A DNA stretch of 64,000 nt from a virus. Its lineage: Duplodnaviria > Caudoviricetes. The stretch covers positions 1 to 64,000 of IMG/VR virus record IMGVR_UViG_3300005259_000074; one strand, given 5' to 3'. The notes below the pieces were generated by a model, which was given only the letters and a program-made list of their open reading frames with translations, was not told the DNA's origin and made no database searches. The position numbers and the translations under genes are program-made. This document shows, piece by piece, positions 4,722 through 56,277 of the stretch (position 1 is the first letter of the stretch; each line of letters starts with the position of its first letter).

Positions 4722-5642
4722 TCAGATCGCCCTGTAAGTACCTTCGGAGACCGCTCCGGATACTAACGCGTCTTTCACTGATGTGTGGATCCCGCCGACT
4801 GTGAAGAACTTCTTCCACATCTCGTCGAAATCGCTCTTCGCTACTTCTGCTCTGCGGATGTTCTCGTCTATCAGAGAAGCGTCATCCATAGACCAACCAT
4901 TCTCGAGACGGACTTTATTCCATCTACAATACTGCTTGAAGGGCATTTGCGACGCTATGAATACACTTCCAGCTTCGGAAGTGCCCTCTAACATGTTGTC
5001 GATGATGCCACTCGCCCAGTCTAGCTTAGTCCACCGCTTGGCTGAAGACATGTCGACGTCGGGTCTGATTATCTTACCCTGCCCCAGCGACATCATCTCG
5101 ATGTCATGGATGTCCGCACCTAACTGGTCGATTGATGCCGCTGCGAGTACCATCGATGGGTCGTTTGCGAATAGCCCTCCGTCCACATATGCTCCCATGG
5201 GATCGAAATAAGTTGGAGCAGACACTGAAGCAAGCACTGCCATCCACAAAGGATAGTCTCCATCTTGAATGGAGGAGAAGATCTTTGGACGTCTCTTGGA
5301 GTAGTCATAAGATGTGATGAACACTGGTTTCTTAAGATCTTTCATCTTGACGTTGTAGTTCTTCTTACAGAATTCTACGAGGACTTTATTCGGCCATCTA
5401 GAACCAAATGGTGTCAGCGTGTGGTACGAAAGGAAGTTGCGATTAAAGACTTCTGGTAGCCAGCCTCTCATGATGGGAAGGAGATCTGCTGGATCTTTAC
5501 CCATGAATATCCAAGCAACAATAGCGGTACCGATAGATGTCGCTCCTGCGCAATCGAACTCACTTAGCGGATCTTTGTCTCTCGTCAGCGCAGCAGTTAT
5601 GACTCCGAAACACCCTCCACCGTCAACAGCCCATTCTTTCAT
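4722..5642 (-). CDS. patatin-like phospholipase
   Basis: DGGGCFG oxyanion loop, nucleophile elbow ATSIG (G>A variant of GxSxG), SVSAPTYF, DGGLFANDP. Confidence 0.9.
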   Translation of the reverse strand: MKEWAVDGGGCFGVITAALTRDKDPLSEFDCAGATSIGTAIVAWIFMGKDPADLLPIMRGWLPEVFNRNFLSYHTLTPFGSRWPNKVLVEFCKKNYNVKMKDLKKPVFITSYDYSKRRPKIFSSIQDGDYPLWMAVLASVSAPTYFDPMGAYVDGGLFANDPSMVLAAASIDQLGADIHDIEMMSLGQGKIIRPDVDMSSAKRWTKLDWASGIIDNMLEGTSEAGSVFIASQMPFKQYCRWNKVRLENGWSMDDASLIDENIRRAEVAKSDFDEMWKKFFTVGGIHTSVKDALVSGAVSEGTYRAI

Positions 5643-5682
5643 CGTCAGCGCCTACATTCTTTCATCTTTCGCTCGATCATAT

Positions 5683-5928
5683 CTAATGATCGTTGCATTT
5701 CATTTTTCTTTTATTCAGTTTGTCTAACAACATGTCACCTTCTTTAGATGTCATGTTGCCATCCGACACACGCTCGACAATGTAGCACTCGGCAGCTTCA
5801 TATCCCAATGAGTCAGCTAATTGTTCTACTATCATAGTGTCAGATTCAAGCTGGTCGTGCACAAGTGGTGTGCACGCCGCTATACAACATATCAGAAACA
5901 CCATTGATAACAATAACAAGGAACGCAT
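5683..5928 (-). CDS. small lipoprotein
   Basis: N-terminal signal with lipobox IAAC. Confidence 0.65.
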   Translation of the reverse strand: MRSLLLLSMVFLICCIAACTPLVHDQLESDTMIVEQLADSLGYEAAECYIVERVSDGNMTSKEGDMLLDKLNKRKMKCNDH

Positions 5929-5937
5929 GTGGTGTTC

Positions 5938-6702
5938 TTAAGTTAAAATAATCCTATTAGCGAAATCAGCCGTTCCAACGAACTCCGGGCGCTGACTGTA
6001 CCCGTACCTAGAGAGGCGAGGAACAGTCGCATCAATGAGAGGACCGTAAGCTGGAGAACCGAGTTCTCCCCATATTTCCAGCGCATAGTGTGTGAAAGCA
6101 CCGCAACAGTGACCACCAATGCAAGCATCTGCGCTAGTCTGGTTAGACCTACAAGCTGCCAACTGAGTCACTCCAGGTCGCCTATCTGGATCGATAGGAG
6201 TGCTAGTTATCCTCATGATAGCTGAACTCAAGTCGAAATTCGGAATGAACTTAGCTTTCTCATCTTTGAACATCAGCTCGCGGAGGGAGTCCGCCGCATG
6301 GCAGCAGTCGGCCCAGTCGACGAATTGAGCGCCTGGTTTCAACAGACTGAGCAGTTTGTCCATCTGGTCGTCTACTATCATGTGATCAGGATCCCAATCG
6401 AAATCGTCGGGACACCAGACTTCAGCTAGTCCGTCGGTCTCGGTGGAGTCAGACACTTGTGCCCCGTGGTGGCTGTGAGCGTGGAACACGATGTCACCTG
6501 GGTTAGCGTCTCTGATGTACTTCTCGAGGAGAGCCAACCAGTTCTTAGTGCTCATGTTTGGTCCGAGGAGTTCGACTATCTCGTCGATGTTCCCAAGTGA
6601 CACTAACTTCTTCTTGATGTCTTCCATATCATTCAGACACCCCTTAAGTGCATGAGATTTTCCGACGTAATTAGTCCCACAGAGCAACGCTATCCTCTTC
6701 AC
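5938..6702 (-). CDS. metacaspase-like cysteine peptidase (C14)
   Basis: LKGCLND, HSHHG (catalytic His), DCCH (catalytic Cys), LAACRSNQTSAD, GAFT. Confidence 0.9.
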   Translation of the reverse strand: MKRIALLCGTNYVGKSHALKGCLNDMEDIKKKLVSLGNIDEIVELLGPNMSTKNWLALLEKYIRDANPGDIVFHAHSHHGAQVSDSTETDGLAEVWCPDDFDWDPDHMIVDDQMDKLLSLLKPGAQFVDWADCCHAADSLRELMFKDEKAKFIPNFDLSSAIMRITSTPIDPDRRPGVTQLAACRSNQTSADACIGGHCCGAFTHYALEIWGELGSPAYGPLIDATVPRLSRYGYSQRPEFVGTADFANRIILT

Positions 6703-6753
6703 GTCATTCTCCTAGTTAATCGTGTGTGCCGCCCTCAAAGGGCGGCTAAAAGT

Positions 6754-7194
6754 TCACTTGATCTTGATGCCCTTCTCAGCGAGGATTTTCTCTGCGACAG
6801 GGAGCTTAGACGCATTGAACCCTCTCGAGAACACTGCATTGAGAGCTTTGACTTCGAGATCTCTGATATCAGCGATCGCTTTTACTTTAGTGAGGCTCTT
6901 AGTCTCCGACACAGTAGTCGCAGTCGCTGTTGAACTTGCGAGAGCGGCCGAAGCGCTGTTAGCGAGAGCTGCGATTGCCGTAGCTTCACTGGCTTGTGAA
7001 GCATCGATGACGCCAGCTGTCTCGAGAGCCGATGTAATAGACGCCACGTTGTTAGAAGTCGTCATTGCCTGCACTGTGCTCGCCGCAGTGCTGATTGCTG
7101 CTGTGACGTCTGTCGAGTTGCACCCGACGATGACACTGGCTGTCAGCGCGACAGCGAAGACGATCGCGATAGATAGGTTCTTGAAGCTTTTCAT
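6754..7194 (-). CDS. Ala/Thr-rich lipoprotein
   Basis: Signal peptide with lipobox IVGC; helical Ala-rich body. Confidence 0.7.
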   Translation of the reverse strand: MKSFKNLSIAIVFAVALTASVIVGCNSTDVTAAISTAASTVQAMTTSNNVASITSALETAGVIDASQASEATAIAALANSASAALASSTATATTVSETKSLTKVKAIADIRDLEVKALNAVFSRGFNASKLPVAEKILAEKGIKIK

Positions 7195-7222
7195 GATACG
7201 TTTCCTCTTGTTGTGTTGAGAT

Positions 7223-7897
7223 TTACTTGTCTGACGTCAATTTCTTCTGGAGCACTCGGAACATCTTTTCATCCGCTATCATGCGGTTATCGATGGGATC
7301 TTCACCAGCAGTTAAAGCGTCTAGACTCTTGTCAGTCATGTTCGCCAACTCATTAAATCTTGTATTGACCTCTTTGTCAGATGCGGCGATTTCTCTTATC
7401 TTCGTCAGAGTCTCAAACGCTCTGGCTTGTGCAGGTAAATCCATCGCGTCTATTTGCTTACTCAGAGTCTTTTCGAAGTACTTCGCTACTGATTCAGTGT
7501 CTACTACTTCCAGGCCGTCGATCTCTATTGTGATCGATCCATCAGCATGAGTCTCAATCTTCGTCTTTTTCAACCTCGTCTTAGCTGCATAATCCCAGTT
7601 CAACTCTCCGACAGAAGAACTACCATAAGGAAGCGTCGACTTTGAGATCCTTAAGGACATCATGTCACCGTCTCCAAGTTTATGATTGAATATCTTAGAG
7701 TAAATGGTACCGAAGTCTAACCTAGGTGATATTGCTCCATCAGAACCGACTGAAGTGTTGAACGTGAAACCACTGCCTTGAGCACTCGCTGTAGTGGATT
7801 TTCCACCCAAATCTTTCCATAACTCATCAAAAGCACAGCCTGCCGCTATCGTCAATACCAGACAAAAAACGCACAAGATAATTAATTTCTTCATCAT
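7223..7897 (-). CDS. lipoprotein, unknown function
   Basis: ATG 7897 after AGGAG; MMKKLIIL...AAGC lipobox. Confidence 0.7.
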   Translation of the reverse strand: MMKKLIILCVFCLVLTIAAGCAFDELWKDLGGKSTTASAQGSGFTFNTSVGSDGAISPRLDFGTIYSKIFNHKLGDGDMMSLRISKSTLPYGSSSVGELNWDYAAKTRLKKTKIETHADGSITIEIDGLEVVDTESVAKYFEKTLSKQIDAMDLPAQARAFETLTKIREIAASDKEVNTRFNELANMTDKSLDALTAGEDPIDNRMIADEKMFRVLQKKLTSDK

Positions 7898-7936
7898 TTT
7901 CTCCTGATTATCAAGAATTATCGTCACTGTTTGATT

Positions 7937-7944
7937 TATTTATA
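7937..7944 (-). promoter_or_regulatory. T4-type late promoter TATAAATA
   Basis: Exact gp55 consensus about 40 nt upstream of the lipoprotein/metacaspase/patatin operon. Confidence 0.75.
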
Positions 7945-7993
7945 AGTTAAATCATTTACAACCGGAAATGTAATTTGTAGAACTTTGATATGT

Positions 7994-8374
7994 TCATTGT
8001 TCGAGCTCCGTAATTTTTGCTTTGACGCTGACAAGATCTATTGAGGCCTGGGAGAGTGCTGTTGCTGTGACTACGTCGGAAAGGTCAATGACTTGCGCGT
8101 CCGCCCAATCTGCTTTGAACTCTGAGGAAGACTCTAGAAGCGCGTCAAGCTGGCTCTCAATTCCAAGAGCTCTCATTGCGCGGCGGATTTGGAGTTTCGA
8201 GACATATTGGGGTGTCAGAACTGCGCCAGCTGGAAGCTCTTGACCTATATCTATTCCCGGTGTCGAGTCAGCTATTGTGTAGATGCTCGCGGTCGGATAG
8301 AGTGCAAAAAGCCTTTGCGACATTTCATCAGCATAGGTCGCTTCGATCATTCCATTGAAAATGACGAGTTGCAT
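7994..8374 (-). CDS. tail fibre-associated (assembly chaperone-like) protein
   Basis: Follows a fibre gene; VSKLQIRRAM...WADAQVI motif typical of fibre-adjacent proteins. Confidence 0.55.
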   Translation of the reverse strand: MQLVIFNGMIEATYADEMSQRLFALYPTASIYTIADSTPGIDIGQELPAGAVLTPQYVSKLQIRRAMRALGIESQLDALLESSSEFKADWADAQVIDLSDVVTATALSQASIDLVSVKAKITELEQ

Positions 8375-8384
8375 GAAGTCCTCC

Positions 8385-9908
8385 TTAGTTTCTGATATAG
8401 GCGTTATAATTGCCGTTGGTGTTGACTGCCGGGGTCGCGTTGGTGGTGCAGGATGTAAACGTAACTCCTACGGCGTAAACAAAGCTACCCTGATAGCATG
8501 ATATGCCTGTCGTAGCGGTGTTTATAGTTGCGCTAGCCGCGTAAACCAAACTGACATTTTGGCAAACGATTCCCGTGGTGCAATTTGTAATGGCTGCGGA
8601 GTTGATGAGCGCACTGGAGAAGTAGTTTACGTTTACGCCATAGGTGCAAGCAGTAATCGTTAGAGAACCCGCATTCGAAACAAACTCAGCCCTGCTTCCT
8701 ACCGCTACACCGCTTCCGCAATTCGACATGGTGCAGTACGGAATTTGCAATTCCGAACCCATTTGAACAGACGCGCCATACGCGGTCGTTCCAGAGAAGA
8801 CTGCGTATTGCAATCGAACTTGCGAATTGTATGAAATGAACAATCCGCCATTAGATTGGTTGTTCGAGAAGCACAAAGCTGTAGCTTGCGTAGTCGCGCC
8901 GTAAACGGAAGACATGTAGTATACAGTGAAGGAAGTCCCGAAAAAGCCGCATGTTATAATAGACTTGATGAAAGACCCGTTAGCGATGTAAATACCGGCA
9001 CTTGATGTCGCTCCACCAGAGTTCGTGAAAGCGCAGTTTTGAATAGAATTGAGACACCCTGTAAGTAGGGTCCAGCCTTGCACGCCTGTAGTGCTAGATG
9101 TTATGTCTATGATGGTTTTTAATACCACCGCGGTAGATGTTGCTGTCACAGCTCCGGCCGGAACGCCTGTAGGATTCGTGCAAGATACGCTGATACGCTT
9201 GTTTCCGGTATCTACATTTGTGATGGGCCAGCACCCCTCTGCGTATTTAGGGTTCGTTCCTCCACTACAGCCCGATATGTTGATGTAGTCCCCTACGGAC
9301 ACGTTTGCCACATCATTCATATTAAACGTAATCGTATAGGCCCCGGATGAACCGCTAGAACTTTGAACAGAGGAAATGCTCTTTACATAAGTGTGTGTTC
9401 CTGCTATATTGATGAAAGTTCCATGGCGGTGTAGCAGATTTGTGGAGCCTGAAGAGGAATACGTGCCATCAGCTAGATAGATGTTGACTGTTGCGGTGAT
9501 ATCGTAATCCTGAAGATACACGATTGCTTTCCCGACAGTCGCCCAGGGATTACCTGATGATCCATCTCCTGTAGTATCCGATCCAGTGGTCGCGACATAA
9601 AAGTTAGTAGTCGCCGATATGACTCCACTGCTAGCTACAGTAGCTCTGCCTTTCGAATCAAATGTGACCGCGGCTCTAGCATAACTTCCTGCCGCAACCC
9701 CTGAAGATGCTAGTGTTAAATTGCCCGGATAATCTAATGTAGCATCGCCATAGACTGTGATGGCTGTAGCTACACCGGACATGTTACCCATGAAAATCTT
9801 ATTCGCTGCAAGTTGAAGCGTTGAAGCAATCGGTGTGATGGCAGAGTTGCCTGCTATCAAAAATATTAGACTCGTCACTAGAAGCGCTGTAGCTAGTGCT
9901 CTTTTCAT
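8385..9908 (-). CDS. tail fibre/tailspike-like protein with beta-helix (pectin lyase-like) C-terminus
   Basis: GVAAGSYARAAVTFDSKGRAT fibre motif, FYVATTGSDTTGDGSSGNPWATV, Ser/Thr/Asn-rich beta-helix repeats. Confidence 0.75.
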   Translation of the reverse strand: MKRALATALLVTSLIFLIAGNSAITPIASTLQLAANKIFMGNMSGVATAITVYGDATLDYPGNLTLASSGVAAGSYARAAVTFDSKGRATVASSGVISATTNFYVATTGSDTTGDGSSGNPWATVGKAIVYLQDYDITATVNIYLADGTYSSSGSTNLLHRHGTFINIAGTHTYVKSISSVQSSSGSSGAYTITFNMNDVANVSVGDYINISGCSGGTNPKYAEGCWPITNVDTGNKRISVSCTNPTGVPAGAVTATSTAVVLKTIIDITSSTTGVQGWTLLTGCLNSIQNCAFTNSGGATSSAGIYIANGSFIKSIITCGFFGTSFTVYYMSSVYGATTQATALCFSNNQSNGGLFISYNSQVRLQYAVFSGTTAYGASVQMGSELQIPYCTMSNCGSGVAVGSRAEFVSNAGSLTITACTYGVNVNYFSSALINSAAITNCTTGIVCQNVSLVYAASATINTATTGISCYQGSFVYAVGVTFTSCTTNATPAVNTNGNYNAYIRN

Positions 9909-47413: not shown

Positions 47414-49039
47414 ATGACACCTGAAGAGCTTAAAGAATTTCTCAAAGATCCGAATATGAAAAAGAACTTCGGAGCGATCGCTGCTTCAACTAAAGTTGGG
47501 ACGAAGTACTTTGATGTAAGAACGACTCTCTACGAGGAGACTTCATCATTTCCAGATGCTTCGATAAGTGAACGCATCTTCTGTGTTTTGAACGGAATTA
47601 AACGTCCCAAGATATGTAAGTGCGGTTGTGGGAAACTAGTCAACGACCAACGGCATGACTATCTCGCATCTCACGGAAATAGAGATCCTGAGGTCAAAGC
47701 TAAAAAGGAAGAGTCTTACAAAAAGAAGACAGGCTATACTAATCCATCTCAGAATCCGGATGTCAAGAAACAGAAAGCTGACACTTCGATCAAAAATTGG
47801 GGAGCAGTTAGCTACATGCGGACCGATGAAGGTAAAAAGATGCATGATGATAGCATGCTAAAATTGCACGGAGTTGTGAACCCCTTTCAGATACCTGAAG
47901 TCAAAGCTGATATTCAGATAAAGTGGAAAGTTAAAAAATCCGAGACTATCAAGAAGATAAAAGAAACTGGTAAAAAAACATTCTTCGAGAAAATGTTGAC
48001 ATCAAATAGAATGGGTTCTATCAGACCACTATTTACTATCGATGAATATGCTGGGTGTGACAAGTATTATCGATTCATGTGTACCACCTGCAACAAAGAA
48101 TTCACCGACAGAGTCATCAATGGACGCATTCCTCGTTGCACTACGTGTTATCCTCTCATAGATTCCGGTGGTCGTTCTTTAGCTCAACAAGAAGTGACAG
48201 ACTACATTAAATTTTTAACAGACCAAGAAGTGAAAGAGGAAGATAGAAAAGTACTAGAGGGAAAAGAACTTGACATATACATTCCTTCGTTGAACATAGC
48301 ATTTGAATACTGCGGTCTCTATTGGCACAGTGAGATATCTGGCACGGAACGCAACAAGGACGCTGATAAAGGTAGGCACTATCATGTTGGAAAATTTAAG
48401 AAGTGTTCTGATAAAGGCATTAAGCTCATCACAATTTTTGAAGATGAATGGGTGTATAGACAAACACAAGTAAAAGGTAGAATAAGAGCACTGTTAGGAG
48501 CATGTGAGAAAATTGGAGCACGTGAGTGTTCTGTTGAGAAATTGAATTTTGAAGAATACTCCCAATTTGTTGATAACTATCACATACAAGGAAGCACAAA
48601 TGCTTTTTTGACAGCATACGGTCTCAAGTATGGTGGAGAAGTCCTTTCAGTCATAGGTATTTCTAACAAGCGCGGTATCTTTAAGGGAGGAAAGAAAGAT
48701 TGTCTAGAACTCATCAGAATGTGTTCTAGAGATGGAATAGAAGTTGTTGGTGGGATGTCACGGTTGATATCTGCTGTTGCAAAAGATTACCCAGAAAGAT
48801 TGCTAGTTTCATATGCAGACAGACGATGGAGTGATGGAAATGGATATGTTAAGACTGGATTCATAGCAGTCAATACATCTACTGCTAATTATTGGTATGT
48901 CAAAGATGGAGAACGTCACCACCGTCTGATAGCGAGAGATAAACGAATCACAGGTCTTACTGAATGGGAATCGATGCAGATTCTTAAGTATGACAGAATA
49001 TGGGATTGTGGCACAATCAGATTTGAAAAGATTCTCTAA
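47414..49039 (+). mobile_element. Hef-like homing endonuclease (PD-(D/E)xK) with DNA-binding repeats and C-terminal GNAT/Mom-like domain
   Basis: AT-rich; CKCGCG, NPSQNPDVK repeats, CTTC..CTTC, ELDIYIPSLNIAFEYCGLYWH...IFEDEW, then ELIRMC..VVGG..WSDG..WDCG; next to gp23. Confidence 0.8.
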
Positions 49040-49059: not shown

Positions 49060-49100
49060 AAAAAAATAGGGGAGAGTTTTTACACTCTCCCCTATTTGTT
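49060..49100. terminator. bidirectional intrinsic terminator
   Basis: ATAGGGGAGAGT/ACTCTCCCCTAT perfect stem flanked by A and T tracts between convergent genes. Confidence 0.9.
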
Positions 49101-49143: not shown

Positions 49144-50532
49144 TTAGTACATGAACACTCTGCTGCCACTTGCCTCAAGAACCGAGGAGGTGAGTCCGTC
49201 GACCTTGATGAAATGGTAATAGTTTCCTGCGCCGAACAGATTGCTCAAAATCCCGTAGCGGGTCCTGACACCGATCCTAGGAGTGAAGTTCTCCTGGCCG
49301 AGAGCCCTGAGCAACTGAACCGGGATGTACGGAGTATATATGATACCCGCATCATACGGAGTTGGTCCCTTGTACCCGAGGAGCGCGTAGTTGCCCATGG
49401 CGAACGTATCCCTGTAGAGGGTGATTCCGCCGTTGCGCATCGTGCCGACCTTGGAGATTCCGACCGTATTCGTGTCGAGGGCTGCGTTTCCAGCCTTGTC
49501 GAGGACGAAGTCCTGGAGTCTCTCGAGGATTGCGCAGACGTTCGGGGAGCCGAAGGCGAAGGTCGCCGGGCCTCTCCTGGACGTGATTGCGATCTCGTTG
49601 GACTTCTGGAGGATCTGGGTGTAGAGAGTGCCGATACGCTCGAGCTGGTTCCTGCCGTCAGCAGAGACCGGGCTCCAGGTCGACACGCGTCCACCTGCGA
49701 TAGCAGCCTTCACCATTTCTGCGAGGAGCTGACGGTCGATTTCCGCCTGGATCTCGTAGGAGATGATGTTGACCATCTCAGCATCGACGTCTACGCCGTG
49801 CATGTTCATCATGTCTTCAGCGAGTTCCAGCGACCAGTGGGCTGCGAGCTTGCGGCTCTTAGCTTCGACTATCGCCTTCTCCATGCTGAACTTGGCCATC
49901 GGCATGTCCTCGCCAATATTCCACCACTCGGAACCAGCCAGAGTAGCGCCCTGACCGTCTTCACCGTAGGTGTTCTGGCCGAGAGCACCAGCAGAACCGG
50001 TGCCAGCGAAGGCTTCCCAGTATGCGCCGGTAGTCGCGTTGCCGGAAGCGCCGGTGAACGCGGAGTCTACGAGGTTGTACCCGATCTCAGTTCCCTGAGT
50101 GACGGTACCCTTGCCGTTGGAGCCGTAGCGCGCGCGGAATGCGAACGCGAATCCAACCGGGCCGTACATCGGCTGAACACCGACGGTGTTGTGGGCGATG
50201 AGCTCGGGGAATATACGCCTCGCGGTCGGGATTACGATCGTGGGCATGCGGGCGTCGTTGGCGCCGTAGTCGAAAGTGCTGCCGAGCTGACCTGCGCCAT
50301 TCGGGAGGCCAGTCGTGTATGCACCGGCCTGCGCACCCATTCCGGCGGCCTGTCCAGCGTAAGACTCGTTGACCTTGTCGAACTCGCGCTGAGTGTTCTC
50401 GAGGACTAGTGCCGTCGAGAGCCTGACTTGCTCCGAGCTGATCTTGGAGAGACCCTCGGCCTCGAGGACCGGAGTCCACTTCTCTAGGACCTTCTCCTGG
50501 TAGTTAGCCGGGAGGTGCTGGTAGAGACTCAT
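49144..50532 (-). CDS. gp23: T4-like major capsid protein
   Basis: EKWTPVLE..LVLEN, VGVQPM.GP.G..FA.R, KSRKLAAHWSLELAED..HGVD, EIQAEIDR, DAGIIY.PY, TRYG..NLF. Confidence 0.97.
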   Translation of the reverse strand: MSLYQHLPANYQEKVLEKWTPVLEAEGLSKISSEQVRLSTALVLENTQREFDKVNESYAGQAAGMGAQAGAYTTGLPNGAGQLGSTFDYGANDARMPTIVIPTARRIFPELIAHNTVGVQPMYGPVGFAFAFRARYGSNGKGTVTQGTEIGYNLVDSAFTGASGNATTGAYWEAFAGTGSAGALGQNTYGEDGQGATLAGSEWWNIGEDMPMAKFSMEKAIVEAKSRKLAAHWSLELAEDMMNMHGVDVDAEMVNIISYEIQAEIDRQLLAEMVKAAIAGGRVSTWSPVSADGRNQLERIGTLYTQILQKSNEIAITSRRGPATFAFGSPNVCAILERLQDFVLDKAGNAALDTNTVGISKVGTMRNGGITLYRDTFAMGNYALLGYKGPTPYDAGIIYTPYIPVQLLRALGQENFTPRIGVRTRYGILSNLFGAGNYYHFIKVDGLTSSVLEASGSRVFMY

Positions 50533-50551: not shown

Positions 50552-51556
50552 TTACTTGCGGTTCTTACCGAACCGATTGATACGGGAGACGTAGGCGTCC
50601 ATCGTCGTGGGCTCCTTCGTTTCCTCTTCTATTACGCCCTCAGTGATTTTCTGAGCGGCAGGGGTGATCGACGGCTTAGCTGCGTCTACGAGCTTGTCTC
50701 GTGTGGCGGTCTCATCGTCGGCGAAGGCCTTGACGGCCTCATCGAACTTCTCCTCAATCTCGCTCGCCTTGCTGTCCTTGAAACGGACCTCGAGGAAAGC
50801 GTGAAGCTTAGGAGATACGTCCTTAGTCTTCTTCTCAAGCGTTATGCGCGCTTCGTTCTTCTCTATCTTGTTGACGAGCTCGACCCTCTCGAGCATGAGC
50901 TTGTCTATTGTCTGATCTTTCGCGTCGAGCTGCGCTTTCGCATCTACGATGGCTTCCTTGATCTCGCCCTGGACGTAGTCGCTGTTGATGAAGCACATGT
51001 TCTTGACCTGCTCGAACATGCTCTCGAGGCGCTGCAGCTTGGCTGCGTCTACTATCTTCTCCTCAGGAGTCGCTTCCTCAAGGTAAGCGTCGAGGAACTT
51101 CGAGACGTTCTCTTCGACCTTGGCGATCGTCTCAGCGTCGTACTTCTGGTAGACTGCCTTGAGCTTCTCGGAGTGGTTCTCGTCGATCTTATCGACTGCG
51201 TCCTGAAGCATCTCAGTGTGGTCTTCGTCGATCTTCGAGATGACTTTCTCCAACAAGTCGGTGTGCTTGTCGTCGATGGCTTCGAGCGCCGCTTCAAACT
51301 TCTCGGCGTGGTCTTCGTCGATCATGTCGATGATCTCTTGCATCTTAGCTGCGTGGTCTTCGTCCATCGCGTCGAGGGCTTCTTGGAGTTTCGCAGTGTG
51401 ATCTTCGTCAACGGCTGCGACAGCCTTCTCAAAGGACTGCTTGGTGATATCTTCGATCTTGCTCTCGAAAGCCTTGACGAGTTCCGCTTTCTTAGCGGAG
51501 TCCATCAGACCCTTCGACTCGAGCTCAGTCAGCAAACTCTCGAAAAGTACTTTCAT
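50552..51556 (-). CDS. gp22: prohead core scaffold protein
   Basis: Acidic coiled coil just upstream of gp23; ENVSKFLDAYLEE, MDAYVSRI C-terminus. Confidence 0.85.
   Translation of the reverse strand: MKVLFESLLTELESKGLMDSAKKAELVKAFESKIEDITKQSFEKAVAAVDEDHTAKLQEALDAMDEDHAAKMQEIIDMIDEDHAEKFEAALEAIDDKHTDLLEKVISKIDEDHTEMLQDAVDKIDENHSEKLKAVYQKYDAETIAKVEENVSKFLDAYLEEATPEEKIVDAAKLQRLESMFEQVKNMCFINSDYVQGEIKEAIVDAKAQLDAKDQTIDKLMLERVELVNKIEKNEARITLEKKTKDVSPKLHAFLEVRFKDSKASEIEEKFDEAVKAFADDETATRDKLVDAAKPSITPAAQKITEGVIEEETKEPTTMDAYVSRINRFGKNRK
51143..51412 (-). repeat. six 15-aa repeats (I/V/M)DE(D/N)Hxx(K/L/M)L in the scaffold
   Basis: VDEDHTAKLQEALDA / MDEDHAAKMQEIIDM / IDEDHAEKFEAALEA / IDDKHTDLLEKVISK / IDEDHTEMLQDAVDK / IDENHSEKLKAVYQK. 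Confidence 0.85.
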
Positions 51557-51583: not shown

Positions 51584-51591
51584 TATTTACA
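51584..51591 (-). promoter_or_regulatory. late promoter variant TGTAAATA
   Basis: About 28 nt upstream of the gp22 start. Confidence 0.7.
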
Positions 51592-51599
51592 CTCGAACT

Positions 51600-51746
51600 T
51601 TAACGAACTGTGAGTTTCTCGGCTATTTGTGCTTTTCTTGCGATAGCTTTCTCAGCCAGCGCTTTCTTCAACTCTTCGAGAGCCAACTGAGCGTTACCGC
51701 TCTTAAGGTTCTTGACGAACGATTTCACGTGTGTGTTTTCAGACAT
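51600..51746 (-). CDS. small prohead core protein (gp67-like)
   Basis: 48-aa ORF below the track cutoff, MSENTHVKSFVKNLKSGNAQLALEELKKALAEKAIARKAQIAEKLTVR; AAAGGA RBS; position upstream of gp22. Confidence 0.6.
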   Translation of the reverse strand: MSENTHVKSFVKNLKSGNAQLALEELKKALAEKAIARKAQIAEKLTVR

Positions 51747-51767: not shown

Positions 51768-52178
51768 TTATTTCTTAGACGGTCTCAGCGCGATGTTTCC
51801 ACGAGACTTCGCCGCCTCGTACACTTCATCAGCAGCTTTTCCGAGCGCTTCGAGTTCTTTGGAGTGCTTTTCGCAATAGGCGACAGCTTCTTCTAGATCA
51901 GTGACAGCAGATTTCCACTCTTTCAAGTACTCTTCTTTAGCTTTCTGAAGCGAAGTGTAACCACCTGGAGTAGATATTCCCATGAAGAACTGCAGTTGGA
52001 ATCCCTTCTGCTTGTCGGCTAAAACGTTCACTACACCGCCGAAAGAAGTCTTACCGAAACTCTTGTTCAGAGCTCTTGTCTTCTCGTCGATCTTCGCCAT
52101 CTCATCGACAAACTGCTTGTCTTCGAGAATCTTATCGGACTTAGTCAACTTCTCAAATGCATCATCGAACTTGCTCAT
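51768..52178 (-). CDS. putative internal head protein (MSKFDD leader)
   Basis: MSKFDDAFEKL..ILE. Confidence 0.7.
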   Translation of the reverse strand: MSKFDDAFEKLTKSDKILEDKQFVDEMAKIDEKTRALNKSFGKTSFGGVVNVLADKQKGFQLQFFMGISTPGGYTSLQKAKEEYLKEWKSAVTDLEEAVAYCEKHSKELEALGKAADEVYEAAKSRGNIALRPSKK

Positions 52179-52732
52179 TTAACCCATGCCTTTTCAACAT
52201 TCTGGAGGTTGTTGTACGCACGTTTGGCTGAGTTGAACGCGTCTTCGCTCTGGTGTTTGATACTCTCTATGTCCATCATCGGAAGATTGCTGTTCGCGCC
52301 GAGAGATTTGTTGAGTTCTTTAGCTTTGTTGTAGAGAGATTCAGCTTCCACAAAAGTCTCGTTTGCCAATTTGCCGACTTCCCGCGCTTTAGTGACCAAC
52401 GCGCTGATGTTAACGTTGGTATTAGCTTCAGTCAATTTCTCAGAATTATCTTCAAAATCGTCAGCTTCTTTGATGAACGACTTATCGAGGACTCCGTGCT
52501 TGACAAGTTCTGCGACCGCAGCTTTCCTGTACTTTTTATACTGGGAAGAGTTCAGTTGGGTATCTTCTCTGTCTTTGAACTGCTGATAACTTCCGGTTTG
52601 CAGGACTTTAACCCACTCTTCGTTGTCTTTCAGAGACCTCGCATCATTAGTCCCCATCTCCTTCAGATCGTTGTCGGTGAATGACTCTTCACTCAGAGAG
52701 TATTTCTTTAAAACATCATCGAACTTGCTCAT
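52175..52732 (-). CDS. putative internal head protein (MSKFDD leader)
   Basis: MSKFDDVLKKYSLSEE; internal IKE and LTE protease-like sites. Confidence 0.7.
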   Translation of the reverse strand: MSKFDDVLKKYSLSEESFTDNDLKEMGTNDARSLKDNEEWVKVLQTGSYQQFKDREDTQLNSSQYKKYRKAAVAELVKHGVLDKSFIKEADDFEDNSEKLTEANTNVNISALVTKAREVGKLANETFVEAESLYNKAKELNKSLGANSNLPMMDIESIKHQSEDAFNSAKRAYNNLQNVEKAWVK

Positions 52733-52737
52733 GTCAA

Positions 52738-53160
52738 TCAGTCCTTCTTTATCAGTTTAGCAAAATCATTGAAATTGCTTTCAGCTTCTTCTGCATCTCC
52801 ACCCGTGTAGTGTTTCTTCAAGTGGTGTATGAGCGAATGTTTGTTCCCTACGAGATGGACCACAGGATGTCCACCGCCAGGTCCACTCATCGTCATTACT
52901 TTTCCTTCTACACCCGGAGTGCTGTTTATCTTACGCTCCAGAGATTTTTGGTCTCCATCATGCATCCAATCTAGCTTGATCTCATGCCGGGCCTGATCGA
53001 TCTTTTCAAATTTTCCTCCAACTTTGCGGAACAGAGGTTTGTGATCTTCTTTTCCGTAGAAGCCCTGACCGATAGAATGAGTGCCTTCAGGTCCCTGAAG
53101 TTTTGAATTCGCCTTCTCTTCACCGATAATGCTCTCATAAAGTTCTTGAAACTTGCTCAT
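52738..53160 (-). CDS. putative internal head protein (MSKFQELYE leader)
   Basis: Shares GPExTH..G.GFYG.E...PLFRKVG.KFEKI domain with the next gene. Confidence 0.75.
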   Translation of the reverse strand: MSKFQELYESIIGEEKANSKLQGPEGTHSIGQGFYGKEDHKPLFRKVGGKFEKIDQARHEIKLDWMHDGDQKSLERKINSTPGVEGKVMTMSGPGGGHPVVHLVGNKHSLIHHLKKHYTGGDAEEAESNFNDFAKLIKKD

Positions 53161-53165
53161 TCCAA

Positions 53166-53627
53166 TCAGTCCTTCTTTTTGTATTTATCGACGATCGCCT
53201 CTATTGCCGCTTTGACGATGTCTTGTGGGAGGTCTAGACCAGCGATCCCCTTGAAGAAGTGGTCCATCGCGATCTTCATCTCGGGGTTGGCTATGTCGGA
53301 ACCGACGTGCACTTCCTGTCCACCGACAGAAGCTATCCTCTCGTGGCCAGGTCCCACTGGAAGCGCTCCTGCTTTTTGCGCAGCCATCTTAGCTAGCAGA
53401 TCTTCCTCATCGCCTGGTTTGTCGTACGACTTGAACAAGAGCCTCTGGTCTTTCTCCGGGGCGCTGATCTTCTCGAACTTGTCTCCGACTTTGCGGAACA
53501 GAGGGACGCCTTTCTCGCGCCCGTAGAAGCCGTACCCCAGGGCGTGAGTCTGTTCGGGTCCCTTCAAGTGGAAGTTCTCCTTCTCCCAAGGCATGTTGCT
53601 CTCGTATAACTCCTGGAACTTGCTCAT
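53166..53627 (-). CDS. putative internal head protein (MSKFQELYE leader)
   Basis: ATGA-coupled start 53627; N-terminal domain paralogous to 52738..53160. Confidence 0.75.
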   Translation of the reverse strand: MSKFQELYESNMPWEKENFHLKGPEQTHALGYGFYGREKGVPLFRKVGDKFEKISAPEKDQRLLFKSYDKPGDEEDLLAKMAAQKAGALPVGPGHERIASVGGQEVHVGSDIANPEMKIAMDHFFKGIAGLDLPQDIVKAAIEAIVDKYKKKD

Positions 53628-53959
53628 TTCTGCTCCCATTTTTCCCTGACAGCTTCGAGTATCTCTTCGGTCCGTTCAGCTGACTGTTCAGTCACGGTGT
53701 TGAAACCTTCTACAGCCTGTTTGATGATGTACTCGAACAACTCAGTCGAGATTACTCCGTGTGCTTTGAAAGTCGACCAGTGACGCTGATCGCGGCTAGC
53801 TCTCACGTCGCCGTTCTCGAGCTTTTTAACGGTGTAACCCGTAGCTTCTAACAGATTTGTCACGAAGGGCATCCACTCCAAGTGGACTAATTTCTTCTCT
53901 TCAGAGACGACAGGTGATTTTATTGTGACTCTCTCGTATAGCTCCTGGAACTTACTCAT
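53624..53959 (-). CDS. putative internal head protein (MSKFQELYE leader)
   Basis: Leader followed by an unrelated body. Confidence 0.75.
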   Translation of the reverse strand: MSKFQELYERVTIKSPVVSEEKKLVHLEWMPFVTNLLEATGYTVKKLENGDVRASRDQRHWSTFKAHGVISTELFEYIIKQAVEGFNTVTEQSAERTEEILEAVREKWEQK

Positions 53960-53966
53960 TTGACCC

Positions 53967-54377
53967 TCACTTCAGGTTCTCCAACTTGTACAGTGTAGAA
54001 GTCAACAACTTCTGCACTTCGTCTATCTCGTTCTGGAGCCAAGACTCGGAAATGCTCTTCCGGCTGACCTCTATGTACTTCACGAGCGATGTGATGTACA
54101 CGACTGGGTCGGTGTCGGCTGCAACAGCGGACAGAGTTATGTCCGCTAGCTTACCGTGCGATCCCTGCCAAGACTCGACTATCCCATCGACCAGTCCTAA
54201 GATCTTATCGTAAGCGTCGTTCAGCGCTACGTGAGCGGCGTATGATCCGGCGCCCTGTGTCTTCAGGTGGGACAGGTGGAAGAAATCTCGCGCTTGGAAC
54301 AGCTTGGCGAACAGGTCGAACACCGGCTTGTTAGTCTCGAACGTCAGCGCTTCGTAAAGCTCTTGGAACTTACTCAT
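53967..54377 (-). CDS. Dps/ferritin-like protein (DUF5856-like) with MSKFQELYE leader
   Basis: ARDFFHLSHLKT..SYAAHVALNDAYD....VDGIVESWQG four-helix metal-ligand pattern. Confidence 0.75.
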   Translation of the reverse strand: MSKFQELYEALTFETNKPVFDLFAKLFQARDFFHLSHLKTQGAGSYAAHVALNDAYDKILGLVDGIVESWQGSHGKLADITLSAVAADTDPVVYITSLVKYIEVSRKSISESWLQNEIDEVQKLLTSTLYKLENLK

Positions 54378-54378
54378 T

Positions 54379-54744
54379 TCATTCCCCCCTCTTATCGAGA
54401 TAATCCTTGACGTATTCGCCGGCTTCAGCTATAGCGATCGCAGCATTACGGGCTTTTTTAGATATGTCATGGTACTTTCCGCCGGCTCCCACGACCATAT
54501 CACGGATAGTTTGAGACGTAGTGCCTAAGTTCAGAAAAGCTTCGCCGTTGGTTTTATGTTTGTTCACAACTTCTTCAAGATATGCGATCATCAGTGGGAC
54601 GATCTTATCTTCTGGAATCTCATTTTTCCACGTGACTAACGATGGACGAACTCGATCGACCATGTGCTTAAGATGGTTCCAGTCTCCAGATTCAAGATTT
54701 TTTGTATGAACTACATTCTCATATAGCTCTTGAAACTTACTCAT
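54379..54744 (-). CDS. putative internal head protein (MSKFQELYE leader)
   Basis: Leader followed by an unrelated body. Confidence 0.75.
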   Translation of the reverse strand: MSKFQELYENVVHTKNLESGDWNHLKHMVDRVRPSLVTWKNEIPEDKIVPLMIAYLEEVVNKHKTNGEAFLNLGTTSQTIRDMVVGAGGKYHDISKKARNAAIAIAEAGEYVKDYLDKRGE

Positions 54745-54758
54745 ATGTTGACCTTTCT

Positions 54759-55337
54759 TTAACGCGTGTAGAACTCCTGGTACTGCGAGACGTACCAGTG
54801 TCTGTATGGAATGATGATCGCTTCAGGTGGGGTAGTAGCTATGCTGAACACCGACAATGGGACGTCTAGAGGAGTCACCACTAACAAGTTGCACGTCCAG
54901 TTGAAGCACATCTGGGCGGTTTGAGTCTGGTTGAACACCAGTTCAAATCTGTCGCGTAGAACGGGATCGTCGTAGCAGACTCTCGAATCTATGACTTCCT
55001 GAAAAGTCCACGGACGGTACGATATGAAGCCGGCGCTGCACAGGCGAGTGTAAGCCCTGCACATGATGTACTGGTCGCCGACGAGCGCTCCGTCTAGCGT
55101 GACGATGCCGACTGGAAGTATCGGGATGCTGACCACCGCTACTTCAGTCGCGTTGAACGCCGTTATCAAGCAGTTAGCGCCCCAGTTGATCGGAACTTGG
55201 AAGTAGTTCAGAGGCTGGTCATACCTAGTGTCGTAGAAGTAGGTGTCTCTCGTGTCTATGTACTGAGCGCACGAAGACAGCATGACTGTCACACACAGCA
55301 GTAAGAGCATCACCAACTTCTTCATGAGAACTGTCAT
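54759..55337 (-). CDS. lipoprotein interrupting the internal-protein cluster
   Basis: MKKL...LSSC lipobox; no MSKF leader. Confidence 0.65.
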   Translation of the reverse strand: MTVLMKKLVMLLLLCVTVMLSSCAQYIDTRDTYFYDTRYDQPLNYFQVPINWGANCLITAFNATEVAVVSIPILPVGIVTLDGALVGDQYIMCRAYTRLCSAGFISYRPWTFQEVIDSRVCYDDPVLRDRFELVFNQTQTAQMCFNWTCNLLVVTPLDVPLSVFSIATTPPEAIIIPYRHWYVSQYQEFYTR

Positions 55338-55591
55338 TTCTTGTTGTAATCTGACTTAGCATCGCTCTTGAGGATCGTCTTATACAGTTTCTGAAGGCTC
55401 TCGGTGTTCAGAGAGAAGAGTCCCTTTCCTTCACCTTCGAGAGTACCGGTGTGTCCTTCTATCTTAGCCGCCATGAACTCGCGAAATTCAGCACCGCCAT
55501 CACCTTCGTACATTTCTCGGCTGTGCCTATTTGCTTTGATCTTGTTGAGATCGACTACGTGATTCTCGTACAAATCTTGGAACTTGCTCAT
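55334..55591 (-). CDS. putative internal head protein (MSKFQDLYE leader)
   Basis: Leader variant; GAGG RBS. Confidence 0.75.
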   Translation of the reverse strand: MSKFQDLYENHVVDLNKIKANRHSREMYEGDGGAEFREFMAAKIEGHTGTLEGEGKGLFSLNTESLQKLYKTILKSDAKSDYNKK

Positions 55592-55606: not shown

Positions 55607-56179
55607 TTATGTGTTGAGACCGCCGGTGGCAACAGGGTCGGCCTGTCCGGTGCCCTCTGGATACCAGTACTGGTATGCGAAGGTGACGTCGAACGTCGAA
55701 GGAGTAGCAGCGTCGTAGGAGAGCTGCAAGTCGCCTATCTGAGACGGGAATATGCCCGCCATGACGTAGGTCGAAGCGATGTTCTGCATGTCGGGGGTCA
55801 GGAGGTCTATCCTAGCGAGGTCAGTTGGGACGGTCTTCTGCCCTCCGCCGCCGTACTGGATGTTCGAGAATATGTTCATCCACTGCTCAAAAGTGGTCCT
55901 GACGACCATCGCATTGTCGCAGTGCACCGTCACATTCCAGGAATCGCCGTAGTTGACGATGCCCGGGAGCTTGAACTTGATGCCCTGGTATGCGATCTCC
56001 TCGGCGGATATCTGCTTGCCCGGGAGGGAAGTCGCCGTGCAGTAGAACGCGAAGGACGGACCCAACACCGGAGAGGACACAGAGGACGAAGTCACAGTCA
56101 GCTGGAACTGGTTCTGCAACCTCTGGGGTGTAGAGGAAATGTAGCTGTAGAAGCCCTGTAGTGATTGGACGTTACCCAT
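55607..56179 (-). CDS. gp19: T4-like tail tube protein
   Basis: CTATSLPG, WNVT..D....R..FEQW, GIFPSQIG.LQLSYD, FDVTFAYQYW. Confidence 0.9.
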   Translation of the reverse strand: MGNVQSLQGFYSYISSTPQRLQNQFQLTVTSSSVSSPVLGPSFAFYCTATSLPGKQISAEEIAYQGIKFKLPGIVNYGDSWNVTVHCDNAMVVRTTFEQWMNIFSNIQYGGGGQKTVPTDLARIDLLTPDMQNIASTYVMAGIFPSQIGDLQLSYDAATPSTFDVTFAYQYWYPEGTGQADPVATGGLNT

Positions 56180-56206: not shown

Positions 56207-56277
56207 TATTTACACAGATCTGGCTCCTGCGCCAGACAGATGCATCGCGAGACACTTCTCGCGGTATTCTATTTATC
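56207..56277 (-). promoter_or_regulatory. two late promoter variants (TGTAAATA 56207-14, GATAAATA 56270-77) with two intervening hairpins
   Basis: Boxes upstream of gp19; stems TCTGGC/GCCAGA and CGCGAGA/TCTCGCG. Confidence 0.6.

Follow-up and report, generated by a model that had tools for sequence, protein, structure and literature searches.

A nine-residue N-terminal peptide resembling the T4 capsid targeting sequence on an array of otherwise unrelated phage genes

The window analysed here is a 64,000-nucleotide (nt) stretch of phage DNA, positions 1 to 64,000 of the IMG/VR virus record IMGVR_UViG_3300005259_000074. On its minus strand, at 51768-55591, lies an array of eight genes whose products all begin with MSKF, the start of a short leader, or tag, followed by bodies that are mostly unrelated to each other. 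A preliminary description of this DNA had read the array as a capsid-targeting system for injected proteins. By analogy with phage T4, whose internal proteins carry a capsid targeting sequence (CTS), the array is most likely a much expanded example of the known T4 system and not a different kind of system. The genes of the array, called cargo genes 1 to 8 where they carry the leader, are as follows.

55334-55591, minus strand: cargo gene 1, 85 residues, leader MSKFQDLYE
54759-55337, minus strand: gene without leader, predicted lipoprotein of 192 residues, overlapping the upstream gene by 4 nt
54379-54744, minus strand: cargo gene 2, 121 residues, leader MSKFQELYE
53967-54377, minus strand: cargo gene 3, 136 residues, leader MSKFQELYE fused to a DUF5856 domain
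53624-53959, minus strand: cargo gene 4, 111 residues, leader MSKFQELYE
53166-53627, minus strand: cargo gene 5, 153 residues, leader MSKFQELYE and a mini-domain, GPEQTH..G.GFYG..FRKV..KFEKI
52738-53160, minus strand: cargo gene 6, 140 residues, leader MSKFQELYE and a GPEGTH mini-domain
52175-52732, minus strand: cargo gene 7, 185 residues, leader MSKFDDVLKK, first (L/I/V)-x-E ending at residue 15 (LSE)
51768-52178, minus strand: cargo gene 8, 136 residues, leader MSKFDDAFEK, first I-x-E ending at residue 19 (ILE)

The MSKF starts are at 52178, 52732, 53160, 53627, 53959, 54377, 54744 and 55591, and all eight head open reading frames (ORFs) of 85-185 codons. A scan of the six frames of the window found these 8 occurrences and no others, against 0.32 expected from residue frequencies over ∼128,000 codon positions, and bore out the earlier count of eight leader genes, with MSKFQ(E/D)LYE in six of the eight and MSKFDD in two; the span first given for the array does contain them all, together with the ninth, leaderless gene (54759-55337). 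Pairwise identity across the eight proteins is 1.0 for residues 1-4 and 0.46-0.75 for residues 5-9; beyond residue 9 it does not exceed 0.21. When the first 12 residues were left out, the products of 52738-53160 and 53166-53627 were related by BLASTP (E 2e-15), and the other array bodies showed no mutual similarity at E 0.01. This being the only related pair detected, the earlier statement that the bodies are mostly unrelated stands. A short N-terminal peptide is thus found on otherwise unrelated proteins of one phage, one paralogue family being the exception.

The virus record is a single 262,470-bp contig, and the search of the rest of the genome that had been proposed for the leader found seven more exact-tag genes, at 74966, 98800, 99441, 117516, 118382, 251065 and 251529. 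All of these are ORF starts; the one at 98800 heads only 32 codons, and the one at 117516 reads MGKF. Looser versions of the tag are at 111277, 115589, 130091, 145585, 233488, 242855 and 252309, and a further one, MKFFESAVRE, lies inside ORF 99452-99868. The genome total is 15 exact carriers, or ∼23 with the looser ones, spread over 200 kb on both strands.

Codon usage in the leader was compared among the six MSKFQ genes over residues 2-9. The residue was the same in 115 of 120 codon comparisons, and in 55 of these 115 the codon differed. Leu7 is written with six different codons among the 15 carriers. Given this codon diversity at identical residues, it is the peptide that selection maintains, rather than the DNA or RNA, and the shared start does not stem from recent gene conversion; a DNA-level explanation of the leader was rejected on the same grounds. 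A signal peptide was also ruled out, since the leader is acidic, nine residues long and has no hydrophobic core. These comparisons show MSKF(Q/E/D)(E/D)L(Y/C/V)E to be an N-terminal peptide common to otherwise unrelated, predicted late proteins.

In the T4 record, MKTYQEFIAE is the start of both ipII and ipIII; ipI starts MKTFKEF and reaches its first I-x-E (ITE) at residue 19. The first ten residues of T4 internal protein (IP) III suffice for head incorporation, with residues 4 and 7 as the main targeting determinants and residues 8 and 10 for processing, and gp21 cleaves after L/I-x-E (PMC9026906). T4 IPI* counters GmrSD, protecting glycosylated hydroxymethyl-cytosine DNA (PMC3012670). What the preliminary description had said of T4 agrees with these sources, that is, with the T4 record for the MKTYQEFIAE leader of ipII and ipIII, with PMC9026906 for the gp21 motif and with PMC3012670 for IPI* against GmrSD.

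Residues F4, Q5, E6 and L7 of the leader align to Y4, Q5, E6 and F7 of T4, and L7-x-E9 is the cleavage motif, one residue earlier than in T4. Both targeting positions are matched: the aromatic residue at 4 is F in every carrier, and the hydrophobic one at 7 is L in 13 of the 15. Residue 9 is the last of the L-x-E in six array genes and in 12 of the 15 exact carriers; in the other three the first (L/I)-x-E is ILE-19 and LSE-15 (the MSKFDD pair) and LNE-14 (251529). As a motif, then, the (L/I)-x-E of gp21 ends the putative propeptides. The earlier claim that LYE fits the gp21 cleavage pattern holds for the six array genes; in the MSKFDD pair, which has no such motif at residues 7-9, the first ones end at 19 and 15. 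The longer putative propeptides of this pair, 15 or 19 residues, resemble that of T4 IPI with its ITE-19. The tag differs from the T4 CTS in having 9 residues, not 10, and in being a different string, so that Leu7 would serve both targeting and cleavage.

The phage also encodes a prohead protease of the gp21 family. A Peptidase_S77 (PF03420, gp21-type) homologue lies at genome 116777-117514 (2.9e-18, above cut-off), and its ELNHP and S-T-R-G motifs (His, Ser) align to T4 gp21. It has L-T-E near its own N-terminus, where T4 gp21 has LIE-9. The protease gene adjoins a putatively intein-bearing portal gene, two carriers lie directly downstream of it, and the portal-protease block is ∼60 kb from the scaffold and capsid genes in this phage. 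The portal gene owes its length of 1100 codons to an intein-like insert (PF14890 7e-8, under cut-off); the portal-protease region is at genome 112297-117514 (L017:3297-8514). Besides this gp21-type enzyme, the phage resembles T4 in its gp23-type capsid protein and, more tentatively, in a scaffold-like gene.

The array lies within a run of minus-strand genes that includes tail tube and capsid genes. The remaining features of this unit are as follows, with candidate cut sites marked by a slash.

56207-56276, minus strand: GATAAATAG at 56276 and GTAAATAG at 56212, two motifs resembling T4 late promoters that precede the tail tube gene
55607-56179, minus strand: tail tube gene (gp19-like), phrog_45 at 1.1e-32, first gene of the unit
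51600-51746, minus strand: small core-like protein, 48 residues, in the gp67 position
50552-51556, minus strand: scaffold-like protein, 334 residues, in the gp22 position, assigned from position and from alignment with relatives
49144-50532, minus strand: major capsid protein (gp23-like), last gene of the unit, with candidate maturation site VNE/SY
49064-49097, no strand assigned: terminator, a bidirectional 14-bp stem-loop after the capsid gene that closes the unit

Intergenic gaps in the unit are 1-43 nt, or there are 4-nt overlaps. Inside the array there is one late-promoter-like motif, ATAAATA at 53188, 22 nt upstream of cargo gene 6 (52738-53160), and a TAAATA at 51589 is upstream of the scaffold-like gene. 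Genome-wide, 23 of 33 ATAAATA sites fall at most 50 nt upstream of a same-strand gene start, and ATAAATA therefore behaves like a promoter element. The array seems to belong to a single late unit, with a lone promoter-like site inside it, and the packing of the genes, the ATAAATA/TAAATA motifs and the terminator are consistent with late expression together with the head genes. Late promoters had previously been placed over these genes in general; motifs are indeed present before the tail tube gene, cargo gene 6 and the scaffold gene, and not before each gene.

The tail tube gene matches PF06841 (gp19) at only 1.3e-3, under the cut-off. The major capsid protein is 33-37% identical by tblastn to the best GenBank phage capsid proteins, and its family, PF07068, is recorded on the 99%-identical protein P0008. 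The candidate capsid site, near the T4 gp23 cut position, is kept as VNE/SY in the relative L002 and as LRE/AY in L003. The small core-like protein aligns to a 135-residue protein at the equivalent place in L002 (z 8.6). For the scaffold-like protein, which is coiled-coil-like, there was no Pfam or PHROG match. The [LI]xE motif is enriched in it (12 against 6.6 expected), as in T4 gp22 (16 against 5.7), and a complex prediction with the 85-residue carrier, from an alignment of just 3 rows, scored 0.00, which counts neither for nor against binding. The scaffold-like protein also contains ∼seven (I/M/V)DEDH repeats, 14-15 residues apart, with D80-E81-D82-H83, H68 and H98 invariant in relatives. 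Such repeats also occur in the scaffolds of relatives (L002:6405-7445 and L003:9070-9948) and in the 135-residue small core protein of L002, and they might bind metal or set the register of the scaffold.

The capsid protein has at least 687 metagenomic relatives at E 1e-80 or better, and several of the contigs allow the tagged genes to be compared at increasing distance. In L045, whose capsid is 99.4% identical, the scaffold is 91.3% and the small core gene 89.6% identical, and the orthologue of cargo gene 8 is only 64.7% identical, with the I-x-E at 17-19 kept. The 799-bp contig L026 (DUF5856 protein 70% identical) has the DUF5856 gene followed directly by an orthologue of 53166-53627, cargo gene 5, which begins MSKFDELFES; the 111-codon gene (cargo gene 4) is missing. 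At the DUF5856 start of this contig (L026:1-60), TAG-GGT stands in place of ATG-AGT, with GKFQDLYE in frame behind the stop; either the tagged start was lost recently or the contig is misassembled here.

More distantly, L046 (capsid 70% identical) has a MRKFTELVDLVLE gene between portal and protease. In L047 (60% identical) an array lies just upstream of the scaffold gene and comprises MSKFKHTLKMIEE, MSRFKEVLQIIEE and a frameshifted MKSKFKDTLRVIE, with the leader pattern MS(K/R)FK..L..IEE. The frameshift in this last gene falls directly after the leader. A ClpP-family protease (PF00574) is encoded beside a gp15-like gene a few kb upstream of the tagged array of L047 (L047:2691-3230 and 5163-8585). 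The complete 164-kb genome G001 (capsid 56% identical) has ∼six genes starting MKF-x-x-L-x-E, and none of the 15 query proteins, 14 of them exact carriers and one the product of a chance MSKF gene, found a homologue in it. On the L045, L026, L046, L047 and G001 comparisons, the tag has been kept with lineage-specific drift while the cargo has been replaced. Most relatives have the genes for portal, protease, small core protein, scaffold and capsid in this order, and in five relatives the portal and protease genes stay with those for scaffold and capsid.

Exact and relaxed patterns of the leader DNA in IMG/VR gave no match and one unrelated match, respectively, and the relaxed pattern in the Joint Genome Institute (JGI) metagenomes gave 15 loci, nearly all of them chance matches in unrelated genes, of which only L028 (1.4 kb) is phage-like.

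Cargo gene 3 is the sole array body with a known family, matching PF19174 (DUF5856) at 8e-18 (65.7 bits against a cut-off of 34.6) and phrog_858 at 4.6e-20. Its AlphaFold2 model (predicted local distance difference test score, pLDDT, 87) is a helical (four-helix) bundle. Dps accounts for nearly all of its best 50 matches in the PDB, with template modelling (TM) scores of 0.50-0.72 and Foldseek E values of only 0.02-0.2. The model points to a Dps-like DUF5856 protein at 53967-54377 alone, the likeness lying in the predicted four-helix-bundle fold. Compared with Dps, it is ∼30 residues shorter, is 12-20% identical over structural alignments, and has Asn replacing one Asp. Its sequence has the spacing H37-x11-H49-x3-N53-x10-D64-x3-E68, which resembles the Dps ferroxidase pattern. 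The DUF5856 homologues P0004 and P0005 and those of phage SH19 have no leader; leaderless homologues occur in Ackermannviridae, an RB49-like coliphage and a crAss-like contig. Because the homologues elsewhere start without it, the leader on cargo gene 3 is an N-terminal addition. On the crAss-like phage contig, the leaderless homologue (L024:10001-10372) comes directly after the gene for a 1565-residue protein, which itself follows ring-protein genes and a Band_7 gene, and precedes two more large genes, within a structural or cargo module.

Cargo gene 4 offers a weak lead to a HicA-like helix-strands-helix fold. Its low-confidence Atlas model has TM scores of 0.46/0.60 to HicA clusters, and HicA chains are the best PDB matches of its AlphaFold2 model (pLDDT only 59; E 0.16-0.8). 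Pfam HicA (PF07927) was unmatched at E 0.1, and the protein is not assigned to that family; in a hand alignment to the HicA consensus, which has a catalytic Gly-Ser-His motif, the catalytic His position reads G-D-V, without the usual His. PDB sequence searches with the DUF5856, 111-residue and 258-residue proteins gave nothing meaningful. The last of these is the carrier at genome 251529-252305 (plus strand; L022:1029-1805), which starts MSKFQELCA, has LNE-14 and opens its body with a YFHGTS motif. In the Atlas, the clusters closest to it are those of DUF3990, DarT/PARP-like and Arr (rifampin ADP-ribosyltransferase) proteins, with scores of 0.93-0.96. It is a candidate ADP-ribosyltransferase and would parallel T4 Alt in function; a Pfam search at E 10 gave nothing relevant for it, and it had no support from the PDB sequence search.

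Cargo genes 5 and 6 have a 32-residue motif after the leader, GP(E/D)GTH..G.G.YG..(F/Y)RK..KF.K, that also occurs in four genes outside the window and in the L026 orthologue. For cargo gene 5, the start at 53627, with GGGAG 6 nt upstream of its ATG, was preferred to an in-frame ATG at 53639. Cargo gene 6 is paralogous to gene 5 and to three genes beyond the window; its C-terminal part matches phrog_5922 at 1.5e-5, and a search of 5.8 billion clustered proteins recovered only the 140-residue protein itself. An exhaustive HMMER search of 1.84 billion representatives with cargo gene 7 found one match, a 97-residue fragment that is 86% identical.

The other bodies had few or no relatives. Cargo gene 1, predicted to give a mature protein of 76 residues and 8.5 kDa without Cys, had no Pfam or PHROG match and no tblastn match in 50,697 phage records. 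Cargo gene 2 had no Pfam/PHROG family, no usable Atlas match and no tblastn phage match, and cargo gene 8 had no tblastn match among phages. The predicted lipoprotein (54759-55337) has a hydrophobic N-terminal signal, an LSSC lipobox, 8 Cys and many aromatic residues; it matched no Pfam/PHROG family and, by tblastn, no GenBank phage. In all, four carriers other than cargo genes 6 and 7, and this lipoprotein, had no tblastn match in phages, and the array region as a whole had no megablast match to GenBank phages. No sequencing run, and no RNA data set, was listed as containing the region. The predicted mature cargo proteins span 8.5-19 kDa. Cys is nearly absent from the tagged proteins: all 14 carriers counted have at most one (0.21% Cys, compared with 2.2% in the rest of the proteome), a level reached by only 27% of the other similar-sized proteins of the phage. 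T4 IPI, IPII and IPIII likewise have no Cys.

Taken as a whole, the data are probably best explained by a T4-CTS-like tag that directs head loading, cleavage and likely ejection of its carriers, with T4 as the model. The tag would bind the scaffolding core during prohead assembly, so that the carriers become enclosed in the head. The gp21-type protease would then cut after L-x-E, which means after residue 9 in six array proteins and after residue 19 or 15 in the MSKFDD pair, releasing mature proteins of 8.5-19 kDa that would be retained with the DNA. At least some carriers would probably be ejected into the host with the DNA, like T4 IPI-III and Alt, and the array between the tail tube and scaffold genes would act as a fast-changing cargo depot. 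An anti-defence role for the cargo would be a further step, to which the fast divergence lends indirect support; no array body matches a known anti-defence protein. All of the sequence-level predictions of the capsid-targeting interpretation held, namely the T4 CTS resemblance, an intact gp21-type protease, peptide-level selection, one unit with head genes and related tags in relatives, and its remaining steps of packaging, cleavage and ejection are carried over from T4.

Several observations weigh against this interpretation. The two MSKFDD leaders have no L-x-E at residues 7-9. Most carrier bodies are near neutral, not basic, and in BLASTP with T4 ipI, ipII and ipIII as queries the best carrier match had an E of 0.17; the predicted proteome gave nothing at E 0.1 or better, which does not place any protein of this phage among the homologues of IPI, IPII or IPIII. 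If the carrier bodies were exposed to the protease, [LI]xE might be depleted in them; it is not, with 26 found where 19 are expected, and the fold must therefore protect the bodies if they meet the protease. The nine-residue string also arises by chance at the starts of unrelated cellular metagenome genes and so is not diagnostic alone. Among the flanking genes named in the preliminary description, the tail tube and major capsid genes stand, the scaffold assignment is weak (z 4.3 against T4 gp22), and the 48-residue protein is gp67-like by position only, having been rejected as a T4 gp67 homologue because the alignment is not significant (z 0.6).

Within the same targeting scheme, the carriers might not be injected at all. 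The tag could target the prohead core, with carriers that form part of the core or take part in assembly, as T4 gp67 and gp68 do, or that fill the head and condense the DNA; such carriers would be degraded, expelled or kept inside, and would not be injected effectors or anti-defence proteins. The array directly adjoins the small core-like and scaffold-like genes, and the MSKFDD proteins, which are closest to these, are helical and Lys/Glu-rich. Degradation would be possible for bodies that are not [LI]xE-depleted, and a Dps-like body suits a role in the head better than passage through the tail, since Dps binds DNA as a dodecamer. Core assembly proteins, however, are normally conserved, whereas the array varies in gene content and sequence between close strains and has no body in common with G001, and the bodies are mutually unrelated, unlike what is expected for a structural lattice. 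We consider this explanation unlikely.

Two other explanations do without the core. The shared N-terminus might be read by a different partner, such as a modifying enzyme, a chaperone or an export route, or might be an N-terminal stability signal. The physical association of carriers with heads does rest on analogy, which leaves room for such a partner, but the composition of the leader speaks against a signal peptide, the leader matches the T4 CTS at functionally mapped residues (PMC9026906), and the carriers lie grouped among head genes and next to the prohead protease, all of which makes a partner outside the core quite improbable. Alternatively, the shared start could be a nucleic-acid feature, such as an initiation enhancer or a product of gene conversion, or an old remnant of tandem duplication, with no function as a peptide. 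The genes are adjacent, two are true paralogues, and two junctions have a preceding ...KKD stop and spacer in common. Against this, about half of the identical residues differ in codon, Leu7 using six, and the carriers are dispersed over both strands of 200 kb; the DUF5856 body belongs to a family that has no leader elsewhere, and the relatives keep the peptide pattern on different DNA. There is very little chance that this explanation is correct.

The capsid-targeting interpretation places the array close to systems already described. The T-even internal proteins are a diverse set with only the CTS in common, and the CTS has been suggested as a general route by which T4-like phages load various proteins (PMC3012670, PMC9026906). 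The principle is therefore not new, and the 'new' portable tag of the preliminary description becomes a lineage variant of the T4 CTS. As in the polymorphic T-even IP sets, the tag is conserved and the cargo turns over between relatives, diverging much faster than the capsid. Those sets, however, belong to close T-even coliphages with the T4 tag, whereas here the lineage is distant and uncultured and the tag itself drifts from one sub-lineage to the next. The genome has 15 exact carriers (∼23 with looser ones), compared with 3-4 in T4. Eight of them are arrayed in the tail tube-to-capsid unit, whilst the T4 ip genes are elsewhere in the genome. Six carriers have the conserved 32-residue mini-domain after the tag, and the bodies are not homologous to the T4 internal proteins, most of them not being basic. 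The distinguishing points are the distance from cultured phages, the number of carriers and the eight-gene array in a head-gene unit.

The propeptide-bearing ejection proteins of the giant phages phiKZ, 201phi2-1 and SPN3US offer a second comparison. There, too, a gp21-related protease processes many head-internal proteins after Glu, and paralogues with identical N-termini occur (PMC5694885, PMC9026906). Their propeptides are mostly >100 residues with (S/A)-x-E sites, whereas those predicted here are T4-sized with L-x-E.

Injected proteins act before any phage gene expression, which makes them prime candidates for counter-defence, and their rapid evolution and lack of recognisable families make them difficult to find. 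With a conserved address tag they can be listed from sequence alone; in this phage the tag marks 15 or more genes, almost all without relatives. It is possible, if on balance doubtful, that this uncultured T4-like jumbo phage lineage injects 15 or more different, fast-changing proteins under one nine-residue tag; the proposed set may include a Dps-like mini-ferritin, a HicA-like fold and the DarT/Arr-like ADP-ribosyltransferase candidate. If so, a drifting and still recognisable tag would be a sequence handle for injected effectors in hundreds of genomes from uncultured relatives; the lineage is known from metagenomes only. As a nine-residue packaging signal, the tag could also serve to load foreign proteins into capsids, a use to which the T4 CTS has already been put. 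The gain would be in breadth and in a catalogue, and not in a new mechanism, the principle being textbook T4 biology.

Two further observations concern the surroundings of the unit. The protein database places these proteins on a 313,637-bp contig, and the 262,470-bp virus record is classed as a provirus, so ∼51 kb of the original contig lies outside the record. Just past the capsid-gene terminator, the window encodes a 541-residue protein (47414-49039, plus strand) with a weak DUF7487 match, and a DUF7487 gene is in the equivalent place in L045, L047, L048 and two further contigs.

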